A DNA stretch of 64,000 nucleotides from a virus. This document shows positions 5,938-13,084 of this stretch, piece by piece. A model generated the notes under the pieces. The model was not told the DNA's origin. It ran no database searches and saw only the letters and a program-made list of their open reading frames with translations. Location of the stretch: positions 1-64,000 of IMG/VR virus record IMGVR_UViG_3300033984_000205. The stretch is one strand, 5' to 3'. Position 1 is the first letter of the stretch. Each line of letters starts with the position of its first letter. A program made the position numbers and the translations under genes.

Positions 5938-6711
5938 ATGTCACAATTACCTGGATACGGATTCGTATCAGATTCAGATGAATCATTAAAAACAAAAAGT
6001 GGAGCCAGATTTGGTGGTAACTTTGGAGTAGCAACTTTAGCAAAATTTGCTTACAGTCCTAATGTAGCTAAAGCTGGTCAAGAGCCAAGAGAAGCTATTG
6101 AGATTGAAGTAAAAGTTGGAGATAGAAGCTACAAAGAATGGATTAATCCTGTAACTAGAGTTGTTGATAAAAACAATGCTGAGATTACAGATAAAACTTC
6201 TGCTGAATATATCAGTGGTTTTACTCTTCTAATGAATCAGCAAAATGCTACAGTAACTCATTATTTGAAAGCTGTTGGTGTTACTGAAGACGGATTAAAA
6301 GCTGCTTTCACTACTCCTGCAGTTAGCTTTGCTGACTATGCTTCAAGAGTTTGTGCTTTATTACCTATTGGGTATGATAAAAAGCCACTTGACTTATTCT
6401 TAGAATATCAATGGAACTTTGGTAAAAAGCAAGATGGTGGTCTTAATGACAAAACCTATCCTACTTTGCCAAAGAACATGAAAGGTGGTTATTTTATTAT
6501 TCCTGCACAACCTGGAGTATTTGTTGAGAAAAGAGCTGAAGATGCTGCTTTATCTTATGAGAACTCTAATGGACAGAAACATCCTTTTGAAAGAGATGCT
6601 AACTTCATGACAGGTAACAAAGGTACTCAACAAGTATTGGGTCAAACTGCTAGCACTGGTGGAGCTATGGCAGCTCCTGCTATAGCAGGTAACCCTAATG
6701 GAACTTGGTAA
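5938..6711 (+). CDS. putative single-stranded DNA-binding protein
   Basis: Lies between the AAA ATPase and the primase; flexible Gly/Ala tail ending in an aromatic residue (NGTW). Confidence 0.5.
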   Translation: MSQLPGYGFVSDSDESLKTKSGARFGGNFGVATLAKFAYSPNVAKAGQEPREAIEIEVKVGDRSYKEWINPVTRVVDKNNAEITDKTSAEYISGFTLLMNQQNATVTHYLKAVGVTEDGLKAAFTTPAVSFADYASRVCALLPIGYDKKPLDLFLEYQWNFGKKQDGGLNDKTYPTLPKNMKGGYFIIPAQPGVFVEKRAEDAALSYENSNGQKHPFERDANFMTGNKGTQQVLGQTASTGGAMAAPAIAGNPNGTW

Positions 6712-6739: not shown

Positions 6740-7768
6740 ATGAGCCAATATCAATATAATTCAGATAACTTGCATAGAAGAGGTTTTATTAGTAAGGAAA
6801 GCATTTTAAGTTTAGTCACTCAGGAACAGATATTTGAGTTAGTATTCAATTTTATTCCTCAAGAGTTTGATTATGTGGTGTCTCCTTTAAGAAAAGATAG
6901 AACTCCAGGATGTTGGTTTAGTTACCATACTAATGGAGTTCTTTATTTTATTGATTTTGCTTATAGCAGAACTCATAGTGATTGTTTTAACCTAATTCAA
7001 GACTTTTTTAAATTTCCTAATTTCTATTTGACTTTAGAATATGTCCATAAAACCTTAATACAAGGTAAAACAGGCTTAGAGCCTATTATACAAAAAGAAG
7101 ACAGTATCAAAGTAGTCAAAGAAAAAGTTAAACTCCTAATTGAAGCAAGGCAATATACCTCTGCTGATGTGAAATTTTGGTCTCAATATGGTATTAGAAA
7201 GAAACATTTAGTTGAAGACAGGGTCTTTCCTGTACAAAAGTTATTTGCTTTGAACACTAAATCAGGTAGTCATATAATTGATTGTAAAGATATTGCATAC
7301 AGTTATAATGATTTTCCTGAATCTAGAAAGAAAGTCTATTTTCCTATGAGAGAAGGTAGTAGAAGGTTCTTAACTAATTGCACAAAGAATGATGTAGGTG
7401 GCATCAATTCCTTAATGCCTTATGGTAAAGAACTCATAATTACTAAATCTTATAAAGATTATAGGGTACTGAAGAATAGTGGCAAGAATGTGATTTGGTT
7501 TCAAAATGAAGGTATGATGCCCAATGATTTAATCTTAAATCAGTTGGTTAAAAATTTTGTTAATATCATTGTATGGTTTGATAATGATCAACCTGGTATT
7601 ATAGCTTCTGAAAAAATTAAAACTCATATTAATAATATTGTTCCAGGTAAGGCAAAGAATTTGTGGCTTCCAGAAAGAAGTCTAGAAGTAGGTATAAAAG
7701 ACCCTTCAGACTGTATTGCTAAAGACAAATCATTATTTACTCAATTCTTAAAAGATTTTACAAAATGA
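6740..7768 (+). CDS. DNA primase (Toprim)
   Basis: N-terminal SPLRKDRTPGC, Toprim IITKSYKD and WFDND DxD motif, KDPSD. Confidence 0.88.
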   Translation: MSQYQYNSDNLHRRGFISKESILSLVTQEQIFELVFNFIPQEFDYVVSPLRKDRTPGCWFSYHTNGVLYFIDFAYSRTHSDCFNLIQDFFKFPNFYLTLEYVHKTLIQGKTGLEPIIQKEDSIKVVKEKVKLLIEARQYTSADVKFWSQYGIRKKHLVEDRVFPVQKLFALNTKSGSHIIDCKDIAYSYNDFPESRKKVYFPMREGSRRFLTNCTKNDVGGINSLMPYGKELIITKSYKDYRVLKNSGKNVIWFQNEGMMPNDLILNQLVKNFVNIIVWFDNDQPGIIASEKIKTHINNIVPGKAKNLWLPERSLEVGIKDPSDCIAKDKSLFTQFLKDFTK

Positions 7769-8298
7769 ATTTTAAGCATATTCATTACTCTTGGAGACCT
7801 CTTCTGAGTGAATTTAACACAGATGCTTTCCTTTACTTCAAAAATGAATTGTTACCCAAAGAAAAATATTACCCTGAAGCTGATGAAGTCTTCAGGGTTT
7901 TTTCTATGCCTGTATCAGAAATTAAGGTTGTGCTAATAGCTAGAGAAGAAGCTTCTCCTATAGTACAAGAAGGCCTTTTCTTCTTAAGAATGTCCCTAAC
8001 TTTTGGGGCAACCACAGACCATAGTGAATATTGGGAACCATTCATTAAAAAGGTTATCTATTTTATTGCTAGGAGTAATCCTTGCATTTGGCTTTTGCCA
8101 ACAACAAAATCACAAAGTTATACAGCTAATCTACCTGCTAAAACTATATTTAATGTGATAAAGTATACTGATGAAACTATTCATCATATCCCTTTCAATG
8201 TAGATTACAACTATGTGTTTAAAGGGATATATATTAACCTTAAGCATGTAAACCTCCTTCTTAAAAAGAAAGGATTAACTGAATTAAATAATTTTTAA
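7765..8298 (+). CDS. uracil-DNA glycosylase-like protein, catalytic motif degenerate
   Basis: YYPEADEVFRVFSMPVSEIKVVLI, GLFFL..SLT and WEPFIKKVI track family-1 UNG, but GQDPY is replaced by AREEA and no HPSP motif is present. Confidence 0.7.
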   Translation: MNFKHIHYSWRPLLSEFNTDAFLYFKNELLPKEKYYPEADEVFRVFSMPVSEIKVVLIAREEASPIVQEGLFFLRMSLTFGATTDHSEYWEPFIKKVIYFIARSNPCIWLLPTTKSQSYTANLPAKTIFNVIKYTDETIHHIPFNVDYNYVFKGIYINLKHVNLLLKKKGLTELNNF

Positions 8299-8309
8299 AA
8301 ATTAAAACC

Positions 8310-8969
8310 ATGAGTGATGTACAAACTCCACAAAGAGAAATAACTATCTATGCTACTAGAGGTGGCCAAATGAAAAAAATCATGACTAATGCAAGTACTT
8401 GGGGAGAATTACAACCTCTTGTAAGAGCAGAAGGATTTGATTTAAGTTCTTTATTAGCAGCAGAAAACATTAACAAGTCTGACTTAGTAAATGATTTAGC
8501 TGTGTTGCCAGCAACAGATTTTAGATTATTCTTAAGACCAAAACAAACTAAGTCTGGTGCTTTAGACAGAAAAGAATGTTTTGCTGCTATCAAAATTTAT
8601 TTAGTAAATCATCCCCAAGATAAAGCTAAATTTACTGTTGATGGTAAAAATGTAACTCAATTGAGTACTGCTATAGTTCAAGACCTAGTTGCTAAGTATA
8701 TTGGTGGTATTAAATCTGAATCAAGTACTACTATAGCTTCTGAAACAATTAAAGAAGTTAAGTATGTTGCAGAAACTCCAACTAATGCTGATTTAACAGA
8801 CATTGAAAGAGTAGAAGAAGCTTTGTCTTTAATATCTACCTTGAAACAGTATGATGCTTATTACAAAGTTCTTAAGCATTTAGGAAAACTTCGTTTTCAA
8901 ATTTCTCCTGAAGCTAGACAATCTGAAGAAGATGAGCTAGCTAAAGAAGCTAGAGAATTAGGTTACTAG
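8310..8969 (+). CDS. putative ubiquitin-like (beta-grasp) precursor with C-terminal extension
   Basis: First 83 aa show a beta-grasp-like pattern (ITIYAT..MKKIMT..TWGELQPLV..FRLFLRPKQTKSG) ending in Gly83; lies just upstream of E2-like, JAB and E1 genes. Confidence 0.65.
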   Translation: MSDVQTPQREITIYATRGGQMKKIMTNASTWGELQPLVRAEGFDLSSLLAAENINKSDLVNDLAVLPATDFRLFLRPKQTKSGALDRKECFAAIKIYLVNHPQDKAKFTVDGKNVTQLSTAIVQDLVAKYIGGIKSESSTTIASETIKEVKYVAETPTNADLTDIERVEEALSLISTLKQYDAYYKVLKHLGKLRFQISPEARQSEEDELAKEARELGY

Positions 8970-8977
8970 TATTAATT

Positions 8978-9012
8978 AAGGGCTTATGTAATGTAAGCCC
9001 TTTAATTTCTTT
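8978..9012 (+). terminator. hairpin / probable leaky intrinsic terminator between the Ubl and E2-like genes
   Basis: AAGGGCTTA(8978-8986)...TAAGCCCTT(8994-9002) followed by T-rich TAATTTCTTT. Confidence 0.6.
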
Positions 9013-9015
9013 ATT

Positions 9016-10212
9016 ATGTCAAGAAGTATAAAAGATAATACAACAGATCCTCTTAAAAAGTTTCTAAACAATGCATGTTTACTAGGTACTCATAAGAATA
9101 AGAAGTTTTTAGGAAAACTATTTGACAAGCAATTTATTGCTATTCCTGGAGCAGATCCTACATCAGATATTCAGAAAGTAAAATCCGACTTCTTTAAGAT
9201 ATTAGACTTATTTGAAGAAAAGTATAAAGGGAAAGCTGATTTAGGTTTTTATCATGAGTCAGGTTTACAAAGGATTATTCCTTATTTTAAAGTTCTTTAT
9301 CCAAAATTTACTATTACTAATAGTCAAGGTAGAAGTCATGAAATAAGAGATTTATTTGTATACCATAGTTTTAAATTTACTAGAGGTTCTGTGCATCCTT
9401 GGAAATTAGAGGGTGGTAGGTTTTCTAAAACTGATTTAGAGATTACCTCAGGGTATCAACAAAGTCATTTAGGAAGTCACAGTGGTTGGAGTTCTAATCC
9501 TTTTTATTGTTCCTATTTTTGTGTAGGAGGAGATACTGATGTAAGTAGAATGCTAGCTGAATTTGAAGTAGAGATGGATATGGATAGGTATGAATTATTT
9601 TTATTTTGTGTAGATAGTATGATTACTTGGGAATCTTTAGAGGGTGTACCTTTTATTAGAATGGAAGTAATTAAAAATGCTAATTCTGGTAGAGTAACTA
9701 ATACTAATCCTAATTATGAAGAAGGAATAGTTCAAGCTATTCTAACTGAAAAAATACCTTTAGATGTAGATTTTTACATCTCTGATGGTATTTACAAAAT
9801 TCATCCTAATTTAAGAGCTTCTAATTTTATTAAAAAAATAGTTTTAAAACATTACACATTTAATGTAGCTAAGAGTATTATTGTTAGTAAAACTCCTAAT
9901 ACTTTTGATCATTATTTACAAATGAAAGCAGAAGGAGAAGTCTTAAAGCAAGTTAACAAAGTCACTGTACCAAAAGAATACACTATTTTTAGAGGAAGGA
10001 AACTTTATCCTAAAGTAGTTAGAGAAGATAGGAGAAAAAATACTCCTATTTCAATTGAAGATTATATTGTTTATCCTAAATTTTTAGAAAATGTCCTTAG
10101 AAAACTTGAGTCAAGAATCTATGAGAAAGCAGTTGTCAAGAATGCAACTAGACTCTATCATACCAGTAATAATGCCAGTAGAGGTATTACATCAGATACA
10201 GTATCTCTGTAA
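9016..10212 (+). CDS. putative prokaryotic E2 (UBC-like) conjugating enzyme
   Basis: YQQSHL...SYFCVGG resembles the His...fCxG catalytic region of prokaryotic E2 families (candidate Cys169); located between Ubl and JAB genes. Confidence 0.55.
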   Translation: MSRSIKDNTTDPLKKFLNNACLLGTHKNKKFLGKLFDKQFIAIPGADPTSDIQKVKSDFFKILDLFEEKYKGKADLGFYHESGLQRIIPYFKVLYPKFTITNSQGRSHEIRDLFVYHSFKFTRGSVHPWKLEGGRFSKTDLEITSGYQQSHLGSHSGWSSNPFYCSYFCVGGDTDVSRMLAEFEVEMDMDRYELFLFCVDSMITWESLEGVPFIRMEVIKNANSGRVTNTNPNYEEGIVQAILTEKIPLDVDFYISDGIYKIHPNLRASNFIKKIVLKHYTFNVAKSIIVSKTPNTFDHYLQMKAEGEVLKQVNKVTVPKEYTIFRGRKLYPKVVREDRRKNTPISIEDYIVYPKFLENVLRKLESRIYEKAVVKNATRLYHTSNNASRGITSDTVSL

Positions 10213-11275
10213 AAATATTTCAAAAGTAGAGTGGTCAGGTGCTCTATTTTATACTACTGAAGGTAGTATTGAAAAACCTGAATTTTTCAAAATTACTTTA
10301 AAAACAATCCTTCCTTTAGATATGGGTTCTCAAGCCTATACTGAATACAATCTTGATGAAAGATTTATGGATTTTATTGAAGAAGACTTTGAAGAAAGAT
10401 GCACTTGGAAACTTGGTCATATCCATAGCCATAACAGTATGGCTGTATTCTTTTCAGGTACAGATATGGCAGAGCTAAATGATAATGCTCCAGCACACAA
10501 TTTTTACTTGTCTTTGATTGTAAACAATGCTATGGATTTCTTAGCTAAAGTTGCATTTATAGGAGAAGCTAAAAAAGATATTAAAGATGTCCCTTATACT
10601 GCTAAGAATGTAGAAGGTAATAATTATATCATTGAAAGACAAGACTTTCAAGTTAATAGCCAAAAGTTATTTATTTTTGACTGTCAGATTTATAGTGACT
10701 TACAAGAACTTTCAATTACTGAACAGTTTAGAGATCAAGTGGCTAAGATTATGATACCTAAACCTGTAAAGACTTTTCCCAGACAAGAACCTTGGAACAA
10801 ACCTCAAGAGCCTTGGAAGAAACCTAGTTTACCTGCTCACACTAATAATCAGAAAAGTCTTTTTGATGATTGGGATTCTCCTTACACTCCTGGTAAACAA
10901 GCAATAGATGATTTGGCAGAGTATGACTTAAAAGCACAATCTATTTACAATTTTGCTAAAGAGTTATTTAATTACAGTACTCAAGAGTCAGATGAATTAG
11001 TAGATATAGAAGAAGTTCTTGATCTTTTAGCAGAGTATGATTTATCTCCTCAAGAGATAGCTAAAAGTGTAATTACAGACTATGCTAAAACTTTTGCTAC
11101 ACATTTTCCTAATGCTTCAGCAACTGATTTTGTAGAATACACTCATGAAACTCTAGATTTACTAGAAGATATAGTAATGATGTATCCTGAAATCAAATTG
11201 ACCATTAAAACAATTACATCAATGATTAATAATTTTATATCACATGAGACAAAGGGATACAAGTCAGCAAAGTAG
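10091..11275 (+). CDS. JAB/MPN+ (JAMM) metalloprotease with acidic C-terminal region
   Basis: Complete JAMM motif: EWSG...HSH-x7-S-xx-D (HIHSHNSMAVFFSGTD). True start may be 10121. Confidence 0.9.
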   Translation: MSLENLSQESMRKQLSRMQLDSIIPVIMPVEVLHQIQYLCKNISKVEWSGALFYTTEGSIEKPEFFKITLKTILPLDMGSQAYTEYNLDERFMDFIEEDFEERCTWKLGHIHSHNSMAVFFSGTDMAELNDNAPAHNFYLSLIVNNAMDFLAKVAFIGEAKKDIKDVPYTAKNVEGNNYIIERQDFQVNSQKLFIFDCQIYSDLQELSITEQFRDQVAKIMIPKPVKTFPRQEPWNKPQEPWKKPSLPAHTNNQKSLFDDWDSPYTPGKQAIDDLAEYDLKAQSIYNFAKELFNYSTQESDELVDIEEVLDLLAEYDLSPQEIAKSVITDYAKTFATHFPNASATDFVEYTHETLDLLEDIVMMYPEIKLTIKTITSMINNFISHETKGYKSAK

Positions 11276-11942
11276 ATTTAAAGATGCCCCATGGTTTCCT
11301 AGAAACAATGAAATTTGTTTAGTAGGTGGAGCTGGTGGTATAGGTTCTTGGTTATGTTTTTTCTTAACTAAGATAGGTTTCAAAGTCAATGTTTATGATT
11401 TTGACACTGTTGAAGACCATAACTTAGGTGGTCAGTTATTTCAACAATCAGATATTGGTAGTCCTAAAGTAACAGCAATTTATAGAATAGTACAGACTTT
11501 TTGTGGAGACAGAGTTTCTACTTTTAATGAAAGGATTACTAGTAATACACCTCATCATTACTATAGTTTTTCTGCTTTTGACAATATGGAAGCTAGAAGA
11601 ACTTTGTTTATGAACTGGAAACAGTCTTGGGGAAGTTGCCCTGATGGAGTTACAGCTATATTCATAGATGGTAGACTAGAGATAGAGCAATTACAGATAT
11701 TTTGTGTTACTCCTGAAAATGCTGATAAGTATGAAAGAGAACATCTTTTCCATGACAGTGCTGTAGAAGAAGCTCCATGTACAATGAAGCAAACTTCTCA
11801 TACTGCTGCTATGATAGGCTCTCTTATGTCAGCTTTCTTTACCAATCATATTACCAATGTTTATTTGGGTGAGACTCTCAGAGAAGTCCCATTCTATTAT
11901 GAGTTTGTAGTTCCTATGAACTTCACACAATCAGAGTTATGA
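11244..11942 (+). CDS. ThiF/MoeB/E1-family activating enzyme
   Basis: GAGGIGS nucleotide-binding loop, DFDTVEDHNL, FDNMEAR, IDGR, candidate catalytic Cys179 in EAPCT. Confidence 0.92.
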   Translation: MRQRDTSQQSRFKDAPWFPRNNEICLVGGAGGIGSWLCFFLTKIGFKVNVYDFDTVEDHNLGGQLFQQSDIGSPKVTAIYRIVQTFCGDRVSTFNERITSNTPHHYYSFSAFDNMEARRTLFMNWKQSWGSCPDGVTAIFIDGRLEIEQLQIFCVTPENADKYEREHLFHDSAVEEAPCTMKQTSHTAAMIGSLMSAFFTNHITNVYLGETLREVPFYYEFVVPMNFTQSEL

Positions 11943-13084
11943 GATTGACTTATTCCACTATAGGAGTCTTTACTCGTTCTCTATTTGATATAACTGCTGT
12001 TGCTGCTAATGAGTACATTCCTATTAATACTTTTAATAAAGAGTATACACTAGGAGATGGACTTAGATATTATAATAAACCTAGTTTACAAGATGCTAAC
12101 TATAAACCAAACACTCTTAAGAATATTAAAGATGGTTTTGAAATGGGTAATAGTACTAGAAGAATTAATATCAATAACAGAAACTATTTTATATCAAAAG
12201 GTCTCTTTCTATCAGAAAATGGTACACCATTAATGGTATGTACTATGAAGAAAGAAGCCTATATGAATGCAGAAATACCTAAATTCTCTGATACAGGGTA
12301 TCATGCAAATTTCTCCTACACCAATTACGTTTTATTTTACTCCACTTCTTTTTTCACTGACCCTGGTCTAACTCCTTTAAACAGGAGACTTCAAAAAGAA
12401 ATATTACAATCTTGTTATGAAAAAGGTATAGAAGTCAGAGTACTGTCTTCCCTAGAAATAGAAAAGAATACCTTTGCAAGATTATTTGAAGTCAAGAAGA
12501 CAAAGTCATTGACACAATTAGAAGCCTATATGGAACAAGTACTGCCAAATTTCTTACACAATAATGGGGAGGACAACTTCATTGAGCAAGAATTTGCACC
12601 AGTAACTATCCATAGAGAAGAACTTTCTGTAGAAGAAGAAGCTCTCTTATTTGATAATGAAATGAGAGATTTAATTGTTGATTCTATTCAAAGAGAAGCT
12701 GAAAACACAATTCATTCTGGTTCTAATCTTAGTCTTAGTGTTGGTAGTAATCTTACTACAAGTACAGGTACAGGTACAACTACAAGTGGTCACTTTACAA
12801 TTGACACTACAAGTTATACTCATACTAGTACAGGATTAACTATGCCACCTAGACAAATGACAGAACTAGAAGAATTAGCTGCTGAAGCTGCCCAATATGA
12901 CCCACTTGAAGAATCTTCTGATGAAGAGGAATCTTTTGATGATGATGAAAACTATGGAGAAGAGTTTCATTGGGGAGATACAGAACATGCAGTAGAAATT
13001 GAAGAAATGCTTAGAGATGAAGAAACTGCCCATACAGTTTCAACATGGCAATCAGTTATACAGCTTATTGATGACACAGAGTAG
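11939..13084 (+). CDS. hypothetical protein coupled to E1, with acidic low-complexity C-terminus
   Basis: ATGA overlap with the E1 stop; globular N-terminal half, Thr/Ser-rich linker, Asp/Glu-rich tail. Confidence 0.75.
   Translation: MRLTYSTIGVFTRSLFDITAVAANEYIPINTFNKEYTLGDGLRYYNKPSLQDANYKPNTLKNIKDGFEMGNSTRRININNRNYFISKGLFLSENGTPLMVCTMKKEAYMNAEIPKFSDTGYHANFSYTNYVLFYSTSFFTDPGLTPLNRRLQKEILQSCYEKGIEVRVLSSLEIEKNTFARLFEVKKTKSLTQLEAYMEQVLPNFLHNNGEDNFIEQEFAPVTIHREELSVEEEALLFDNEMRDLIVDSIQREAENTIHSGSNLSLSVGSNLTTSTGTGTTTSGHFTIDTTSYTHTSTGLTMPPRQMTELEELAAEAAQYDPLEESSDEEESFDDDENYGEEFHWGDTEHAVEIEEMLRDEETAHTVSTWQSVIQLIDDTE

Follow-up and report, generated by a model that had tools for sequence, protein, structure and literature searches.

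Our analysis indicates that a 219-aa protein encoded among the replication genes of a crAss-like phage is likely to be made as a precursor, from which a ubiquitin-like (Ubl) modifier corresponding to residues 1-83 would be freed when the JAB metalloprotease encoded nearby cuts directly after Gly83. We favour this as the best explanation of the whole because the glycine is invariant, because the extension that follows it is variable and dispensable, because split and stand-alone forms of the gene exist, and because the set of genes around it is fixed.

The stretch of DNA analysed (the window) covers positions 1 to 64,000 of an IMG/VR virus record that is 94,105 bases long and judged to be complete; the relevant features of the window are collected in Table 1. 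All genes near the Ubl gene lie on the + strand, within a replication module. Upstream, this module contains genes for a DnaB-like helicase and a Sak4-like ATPase, two genes of unknown function, a primase gene and a short gene resembling that of uracil-DNA glycosylase (UDG); after the Ubl gene come those for the 398-aa, 394-aa, 232-aa ThiF-family and 381-aa proteins, a RusA-like resolvase and an exonuclease. The gene order is common to Flavobacterium phage FpV4 and to the Crassvirales phages cr111_1, cr128_1, cr106_1, cr126_1 and crAss001, and the E2-fold protein, the JAB with an intact JAMM motif and the ThiF-type E1 follow one another in this constant order at every locus with enough downstream DNA. 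A megablast search of the region against a phage collection gave no match. Where homologues are annotated in phage records, they are called hypothetical, 'contains metalloprotease domain' or 'thiamine biosynthesis protein'.

Table 1. The Ubl gene, its parts and the enzyme genes that follow it in the window
Feature	Position	Strand	Basis or remark
Ubl pre-protein gene, P0001, 219 aa	8310..8969	+	ORF, ATG to TAG; family n=940
Beta-grasp (ubiquitin-like) core, residues 9-77	8334..8540	+	AlphaFold2 pLDDT 96-98; fold matches to Ubl chains
Ubl C-terminal tail, residues 78-83	8541..8558	+	PKQTKSG ending at Gly83; predicted cut between 8558 and 8559
Extension part 1, three-helix module (87-100, 102-108, 120-131), with GKNxTQL	8559..8702	+	AlphaFold2, conservation
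Variable linker, probably disordered, residues 132-163	8703..8798	+	Low pLDDT, many gaps
C-terminal helices 164-178, 184-198, 206-216	8799..8966	+	AlphaFold2; end in acidic motif E..LAxEAxELG-Y
Hairpin, 11 bp, then T-rich stretch	8978..9002	+	Separates the Ubl gene from four overlapping enzyme genes
Probable E2/UBC-like core protein, 398 aa	9016..10212	+	Core at about residues 47-222; fold match
JAB/JAMM metalloprotease, 394 aa	10091..11275	+	Candidate processing enzyme; JAMM conservation, Prok-JAB, PADLOC
ThiF-type E1 adenylating enzyme, 232 aa	11244..11942	+	Pfam ThiF, E 7e-16
381-aa protein, role unknown	11939..13084	+	Overlaps E1 stop; usually in the set; phrog_15446

Two further reading frames lie at this locus. 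At 7765-8298, a 177-aa protein occupies the position of the FpV4 gene annotated as UDG (750 nt, ~250 aa) and matches phrog_12143 over its back half only; possibly it is a UDG-like protein that has been shortened and altered. On the - strand, an 81-aa ORF with a TTG start (8348-8593) runs antisense to part of the Ubl coding sequence and is most likely spurious, since the + frame is the conserved one.

The ubiquitin-like domain and its terminal glycine

The Ubl pre-protein belongs to phrog_15560, a family of unknown function, and matches no Pfam or NCBIfam family. Its AlphaFold2 model, built from 142 diverse homologues (mean pLDDT 87), places strands at residues 9-15, 20-26, 48-52 and 71-77 and a helix at 31-40, which is the beta-grasp order. 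Foldseek and VIA-align matched it almost exclusively to ubiquitin, UBX, SUMO, ISG15 and other Ubl chains, along with a few other beta-grasp domains, with VIA Z scores of 7.8-8.6 against Ubl chains and an rmsd of ~2-3 Å over 68-78 aligned residues. The region of residues 9-77 is confidently predicted to be a ubiquitin-type beta-grasp. In alignments with a full ubiquitin chain, the chain's residues as far as 76 are matched to residues of the model as far as 82-84, which puts Gly83 at about the position of ubiquitin Gly76. Codon 83 is GGT at 8556-8558, within AAG TCT GGT GCT (K81 S82 G83 A84), and 136 of the 219 residues follow it. The sequence-only reading of this DNA had proposed a beta-grasp ending at Gly83 and continuing into a helical extension, and the ORF, the AlphaFold2 model and the fold matches all bear this out.

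Searched with a profile, 1.84 billion cluster representatives yielded 940 relatives at E<=1e-3, and the alignment used here consists of the 142 full-length sequences among the best 150 of these (representatives at 50% clustering). Only two of its columns, K81 and G83, are invariant, the mean column identity being 17%. The glycine is kept in 142 of 142 representatives, and also at 73 of 73 IMG/VR loci where the motif could be located, a DNA-pattern scan of IMG/VR having yielded 74 loci. Mean identity to the window's protein is 52% over the Ubl core (residues 9-83) and 74% over the tail (76-83); it is 31% over residues 84-131, 14% in the linker (132-163) and 20% in the C-terminal helices (164-219). 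The residue that follows the glycine is unconstrained (A in 57 sequences, L in 19, S in 14, G in 14, I in 9, V in 8, and others), and between the glycine and the first conserved helix behind it neither length nor sequence is constant. The earlier prediction that an alignment of homologues would reveal an invariant glycine followed by a variable extension thus proved correct: the extension ranges from 1 to 221 residues across the IMG/VR loci and representatives, and takes unrelated forms.

The same five residues, TKSGA, as in the Ubl tail also occur at residues 19-23 of a 257-aa protein (phrog_15339) encoded at 5938-6711 of the window. They are not conserved in its FpV4 or crAss relatives, and we therefore regard this occurrence as chance. 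The 257-aa protein has an invariant C-terminal Trp, and Trp motifs likewise close several of the short Ubl extensions.

Extensions, stand-alone Ubls and a gene split at the glycine

Extensions of 110-211 aa are found in the representatives, and the usual range is 64-221 residues; extensions of 1-2 residues are confined to rare stand-alone forms. The forms seen include the window's type, short helical extensions with terminal Trp motifs, strongly acidic ones, lysine-rich ones and one carrying a bL12 domain. This last form occurs in cr126_1 (L079:1323-2249), where the first helical module and the C-terminal helices are separated by a Ribosomal_L12 C-terminal domain (Pfam E 5e-12, which passes the cut-off). 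In the first part of the window's type of extension (residues 84-131), N114 and T116 are nearly invariant; the pLDDT of the linker falls below 50 at 135-144 and 150-157; and at the far end G218 is present in 101 of the 142 representatives, followed by F, Y or L. The acidic C-terminal motif is absent from the other extension classes. Pfam searches with all 142 members detected no relative of the extension, a profile search of the PDB returned coiled-coil noise only, and none was found in the Atlas. A helix-extended-helix (SAP/Rho-N-like) reading of residues 86-131 was a pattern impression gained from cr106_1 and was set aside, Pfam giving it no support.

Two lineages have no extension. Their stand-alone Ubls are 77-79 aa long and end in KSG followed by K, E or EK: one protein of 79 aa (L071) ends in QTKSGE before a TAA stop, and one of 77 aa (L045) ends in KTKSGK before a TAG stop, with a TAA five codons further on. 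Read-through of this TAG was considered and rejected, since the TAA follows after five codons and then comes the hairpin. At both loci the hairpin is the next feature, and it is followed by the gene for the 398-aa homologue. The 79-aa protein occurs on 5 contigs, and the cluster of the 77-aa protein holds eight variants of 77 or 78 aa from more than 30 contigs and several sources, with KSGK, KSGE or KSGEK ends; the stand-alone Ubls are not one-off assemblies. A fixed KSG motif, behind which the trailing residues drift even in number, is the pattern expected if these residues are trimmed off. The stand-alone forms were found solely through the DNA-pattern scan of IMG/VR; word-indexed searches, whether started from one protein or from the alignment of 142 sequences, returned no shorter homologue.

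A third lineage has the two parts in separate genes. In cr106_1 (L078:725-1928), the first gene after the primase encodes a 92-aa protein that ends in KIKSG-KF-stop and is 82% identical to residues 1-90 of crAss001 gp79. Exactly between this Ubl and a separate extension ORF lies an HNH endonuclease gene (1005-1520), flanked by ~1-2 nt of non-coding DNA upstream and 15 nt downstream. The extension ORF has its own ATG and encodes 130 aa, the C-terminal part of which matches the end of gp79 (38% identity, E 3e-8). We looked for a group I or group II intron at this position and discarded the idea, there being no Rfam match (E<=1) and little non-coding DNA, although an unusual intron is conceivable. 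The arrangement is most simply explained by a free-standing homing endonuclease gene having split the Ubl gene at the glycine, with both halves then kept separately, which implies that the two halves need not stay joined.

Since the extension is absent from two lineages and detached in a third, it appears to be accessory, and we read it as cargo or a pro-part rather than as a core component. A function beyond capping the glycine is nevertheless suggested by the conservation of the first module and of the acidic C-terminal helix across most of the family. The conservation of residues 84-131 is more than a mere pro-peptide would need, and to that extent counts against the pre-protein reading.

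The same set of forms bears on the possibility that the protein is not cut at all, its beta-grasp serving as a permanent N-terminal adaptor of the UBX or Rad23 kind, with TKSG as a binding or hinge motif, while the E1, the E2-like protein and the JAB act elsewhere. Nearly all members are indeed fused, the fused form being by far the commonest, and linkage itself may matter given that the word-indexed searches found no short form; the closest structural matches also include UBX domains, which are not conjugated. An adaptor would not, however, be expected to leave stand-alone Ubls that keep the motif with one or two variable residues behind it, or a gene split at the glycine, and the sequence after the glycine is the most variable part of the protein, in length as well. 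The invariant glycine also lies about where ubiquitin has Gly76, and the conserved gene set holds no other Ubl candidate on which the enzymes could act. We consider an uncut adaptor unlikely.

The hairpin behind the Ubl gene is itself a recurrent feature: a comparable one is found at the same place in 43 of 50 distinct relatives (L004-L077), and also behind both stand-alone Ubl genes. It may terminate or weaken transcription, which would yield more tag than enzyme.

Neighbouring enzymes and a proposed processing pathway

The closest solved relative of the E1 is Uba5. Its conserved residues include R11 (the Arg finger), the G29xGG motif, D52 and D54 (DxD), K75, D113, R118 and D142, and 44 of the 46 sequences have Cys179. 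The E1 reads NLGGQ where MoeB/ThiF-type enzymes have NLxRQ, with the Gly in at least 97% of 46 orthologues, and has no CxxC zinc pairs. Weaker matches to this E1 (31% identity, E 5e-11) were seen in the ~227-229 kb Xanthomonas and Erwinia phages Ep026, Ep032, PhiXhv-15 and PhiXhv-16, so that enzymes related to it may occur beyond the crAss-like phages.

The 398-aa protein is probably an E2, an assignment made from its predicted fold. Its AlphaFold2 model (pLDDT 83) consists of N-terminal helices, a four-strand meander, a long loop bearing H151 and C169, and further helices. Compared, independently of Foldseek, with 48,161 solved chains, the model found UBC, UEV or RWD folds in most of its best 50 matches, among them the bacterial BubB complex; the Z scores of these fold matches are only 4.3-6.3, the best (Z 6.3) having an rmsd of 3.8 Å over 133 residues. 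The invariant residues are S150, H151, C169, G171, E206, S207 and G210. At the level of sequence there is no match to an E2, nor any match in the PDB, and one Atlas cluster with Prok-E2_D on 13% of its members provides a lead only.

These two enzymes bear on a second alternative, in which the protein is cut after Gly83 but the freed Ubl acts as a sulphur carrier or adenylated intermediate, in the manner of ThiS, MoaD, CysO or QbsE, with the JAB trimming it like QbsD or Mec+. The E1 is as small as a minimal ThiF/MoeB enzyme and is matched best, in NCBIfam, by ThiF models; the E2 was assigned from its fold; and sets of JAB, Ubl and E1 genes for sulphur transfer have been described (PMC1779556). 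A carrier of this type would not account for the protein with a UBC-type fold and invariant Cys169 and His151 that is always encoded between the Ubl and the JAB. Moreover, the phage tail reads KSG where ThiS and MoaD have Gly-Gly, and the conserved set lies among replication genes, with no rhodanese, sulphurtransferase or cofactor-synthesis gene seen in it. We consider a sulphur-carrier role unlikely as well.

The candidate processing enzyme is the 394-aa JAB. In its 50 orthologues, the residues of the JAMM pattern (E47, H112, S113, H114, S122 and D125) are at least 97% conserved. Of 34 members, 32 match Pfam Prok-JAB, none of them reaching the gathering score (best E 1.9e-4), while each other Pfam family is matched by at most one; PADLOC gives a JAB match at E 0.014, and the PDB holds no sequence relative. 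The JAB is tied to the Gly83-Ala84 bond by gene neighbourhood alone, and in Bub systems a second, non-JAB peptidase, BubE, is present (PMC11601596), so that a host protease or self-cleavage might make the cut and leave the JAB only to remove the tag from targets. Against this, the JABs of both studied bacterial systems carry out pre-processing, and no other protease was recognised within the conserved gene set; we judge the involvement of a different protease to be very unlikely. Least likely of all is a reactive end at the very C-terminus, Gly218-Tyr219, from which a single residue would be removed, Gly83 then being a mere domain boundary: close relatives all end in G-Y or G-Y-R, FpV4 gp53 ends in ...MFG and G218 is widespread among the representatives, but this reading fails because the G-Y end is not conserved across the family, failing to be kept in cr111_1, cr128_1 and a large number of other classes and missing from the stand-alone Ubls, and this glycine is moreover preceded by helices rather than a beta-grasp and followed by two to three or more residues in many members.

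We therefore return to processing after Gly83 by the neighbouring JAB, for which the following pathway can be proposed. Within the 219-aa pre-protein, residues 1-83 would be the Ubl modifier, with Gly83 as its reactive C-terminus. The adjoining JAB would cut the Gly83-Ala84 peptide bond, and the ThiF-type E1 would then adenylate Gly83 of the freed Ubl, which would probably pass as a thioester via Cys179 of the E1 to Cys169 of the E2-fold protein, and from there to targets. The same cut would free a 136-aa helical polypeptide comprising the three-helix module, the variable linker and the acidic C-terminal helix, and this second product may have its own function. Tagging might in addition be undone by the JAB. 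Counting against this pathway are the sub-threshold Prok-JAB matches of the protease and its lack of a sequence relative in the PDB, the assignment of the E2 from fold matches of modest Z, and the Gly that stands in the E1 for the Arg of NLxRQ.

As for the remaining member of the set, a homologue of the 381-aa protein follows the E1 in 45 loci, and no family other than phrog_15446 was found for it. At two loci the set is interrupted by ~1.2-1.3 kb of extra DNA, lying in one case between the JAB and E1 genes, where the E1 match starts late (L015, ~10041-11307), and in the other between the E1 and 381-aa homologue genes (L043, ~10428-11727). These are possibly mobile insertions or introns.

Significance and comparison with known systems

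If the Ubl is indeed freed by a cut at the internal glycine, these phages would run a ubiquitin-type tagging pathway of their own among their replication genes. Such pathways have so far been studied in bacteria, where Bil and CBASS are known anti-phage defences. In the human gut, the Crassvirales rank among the most abundant phages, and the cultured crAss001 and DAC15 carry the same gene set; gp79 of crAss001 provides a culturable test system. The predicted cut site also gives the active form of the tag (residues 1-83), which is needed to trap E1 and E2 intermediates and to find targets. A search of a literature library found no paper on the Ubl, E1 or JAB system of crAss-like phages. The mechanism itself is already known from Bub and Bil; what appears from the sequences to be new is that the system is borne by phages, that its cargo is not an E2, that the JAB and E1 are separate genes and that the cysteines are conserved.

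Eukaryotic ubiquitin-ribosomal protein fusions consist of an N-terminal tag on an unrelated protein, from which a deubiquitinase releases two products in equal amounts. The phage protein likewise has an N-terminal tag fused to an unrelated protein, and the extension of cr126_1 even carries a bL12 domain, but the proteases and the cargo are different, and nothing indicates common descent of the fusion. It is possible, although we hold this only tentatively, that the cleavable Ubl is a general N-terminal carrier in crAss-like phages, with which diverse cargo is co-produced in equimolar amounts and from which it is freed by cutting. Candidate cargo seen includes the helical module, the bL12 C-terminal domain and the acidic or lysine-rich tails. 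Were this true, the phage genes would be a counterpart of the eukaryotic ubiquitin fusion genes, and the phage JAB would time the release of cargo that works in replication or host takeover.

Among phages, release of a Ubl from a C-terminal domain by a JAB was predicted for the TAPI proteins of lambda and T1 (Iyer, Burroughs and Aravind 2006; PMC1779556). TAPI and the JAB of TAPK resemble the present case in combining a phage Ubl, a conserved Gly at the end of the beta-grasp, a C-terminal domain and a neighbouring JAB. They differ from it in that TAPI belongs to the tail module, has a Gly-rich linker and is accompanied by neither E1 nor E2, and in that the TAPK JAB is fused to an NlpC/P60 peptidase.

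The BilABCD system likewise has four parts, Ubl, E2, JAB and E1, of which the E2 is a probable one in the phage. BilC cleaves the Gly97-Ala98 bond of BilA and does the same to a BilA-GFP fusion (Chambers et al.; PMC10557695), and thus a JAB exposes the reactive Gly at a Gly-Ala bond and accepts a large fusion, just as is predicted here for Gly83-Ala84. BilA has one extra residue, whereas the phage protein usually has 64-221 and is reduced to 1-2 only in its stand-alone forms. The PADLOC Bil models gave no match to the phage proteins apart from a negligible one to BilD at E 0.067.

A comparable architecture is that of type I Bub, whose BubAB is cleaved by the JAB domain of BubCD just behind an internal glycine, the conserved Gly229, into two functional proteins (Ye et al., 2024; PMC11601596). 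Sequence comparison revealed no similarity between type I Bub and the phage set. In both, a Ubl fronts a longer protein, a conserved internal Gly ends the beta-grasp, and an E1 and an E2-fold protein, a probable one in the phage, are encoded in the same operon; the cut that frees the Ubl and a second protein is made by the operon's JAB in Bub and is predicted here. The second part of the Bub fusion is the E2 itself (BubB), whereas in the phage it is a helical protein with no E2 fold and the E2-fold protein has a separate gene. The JAB and E1 form a single fused protein in Bub but are encoded separately in the phage, and the Bub E1 and E2 have no catalytic Cys, in contrast to the conserved Cys179 and Cys169 of the phage enzymes. 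Finally, Bub is bacterial and linked to defence regulators, while the phage set lies in a replication module.
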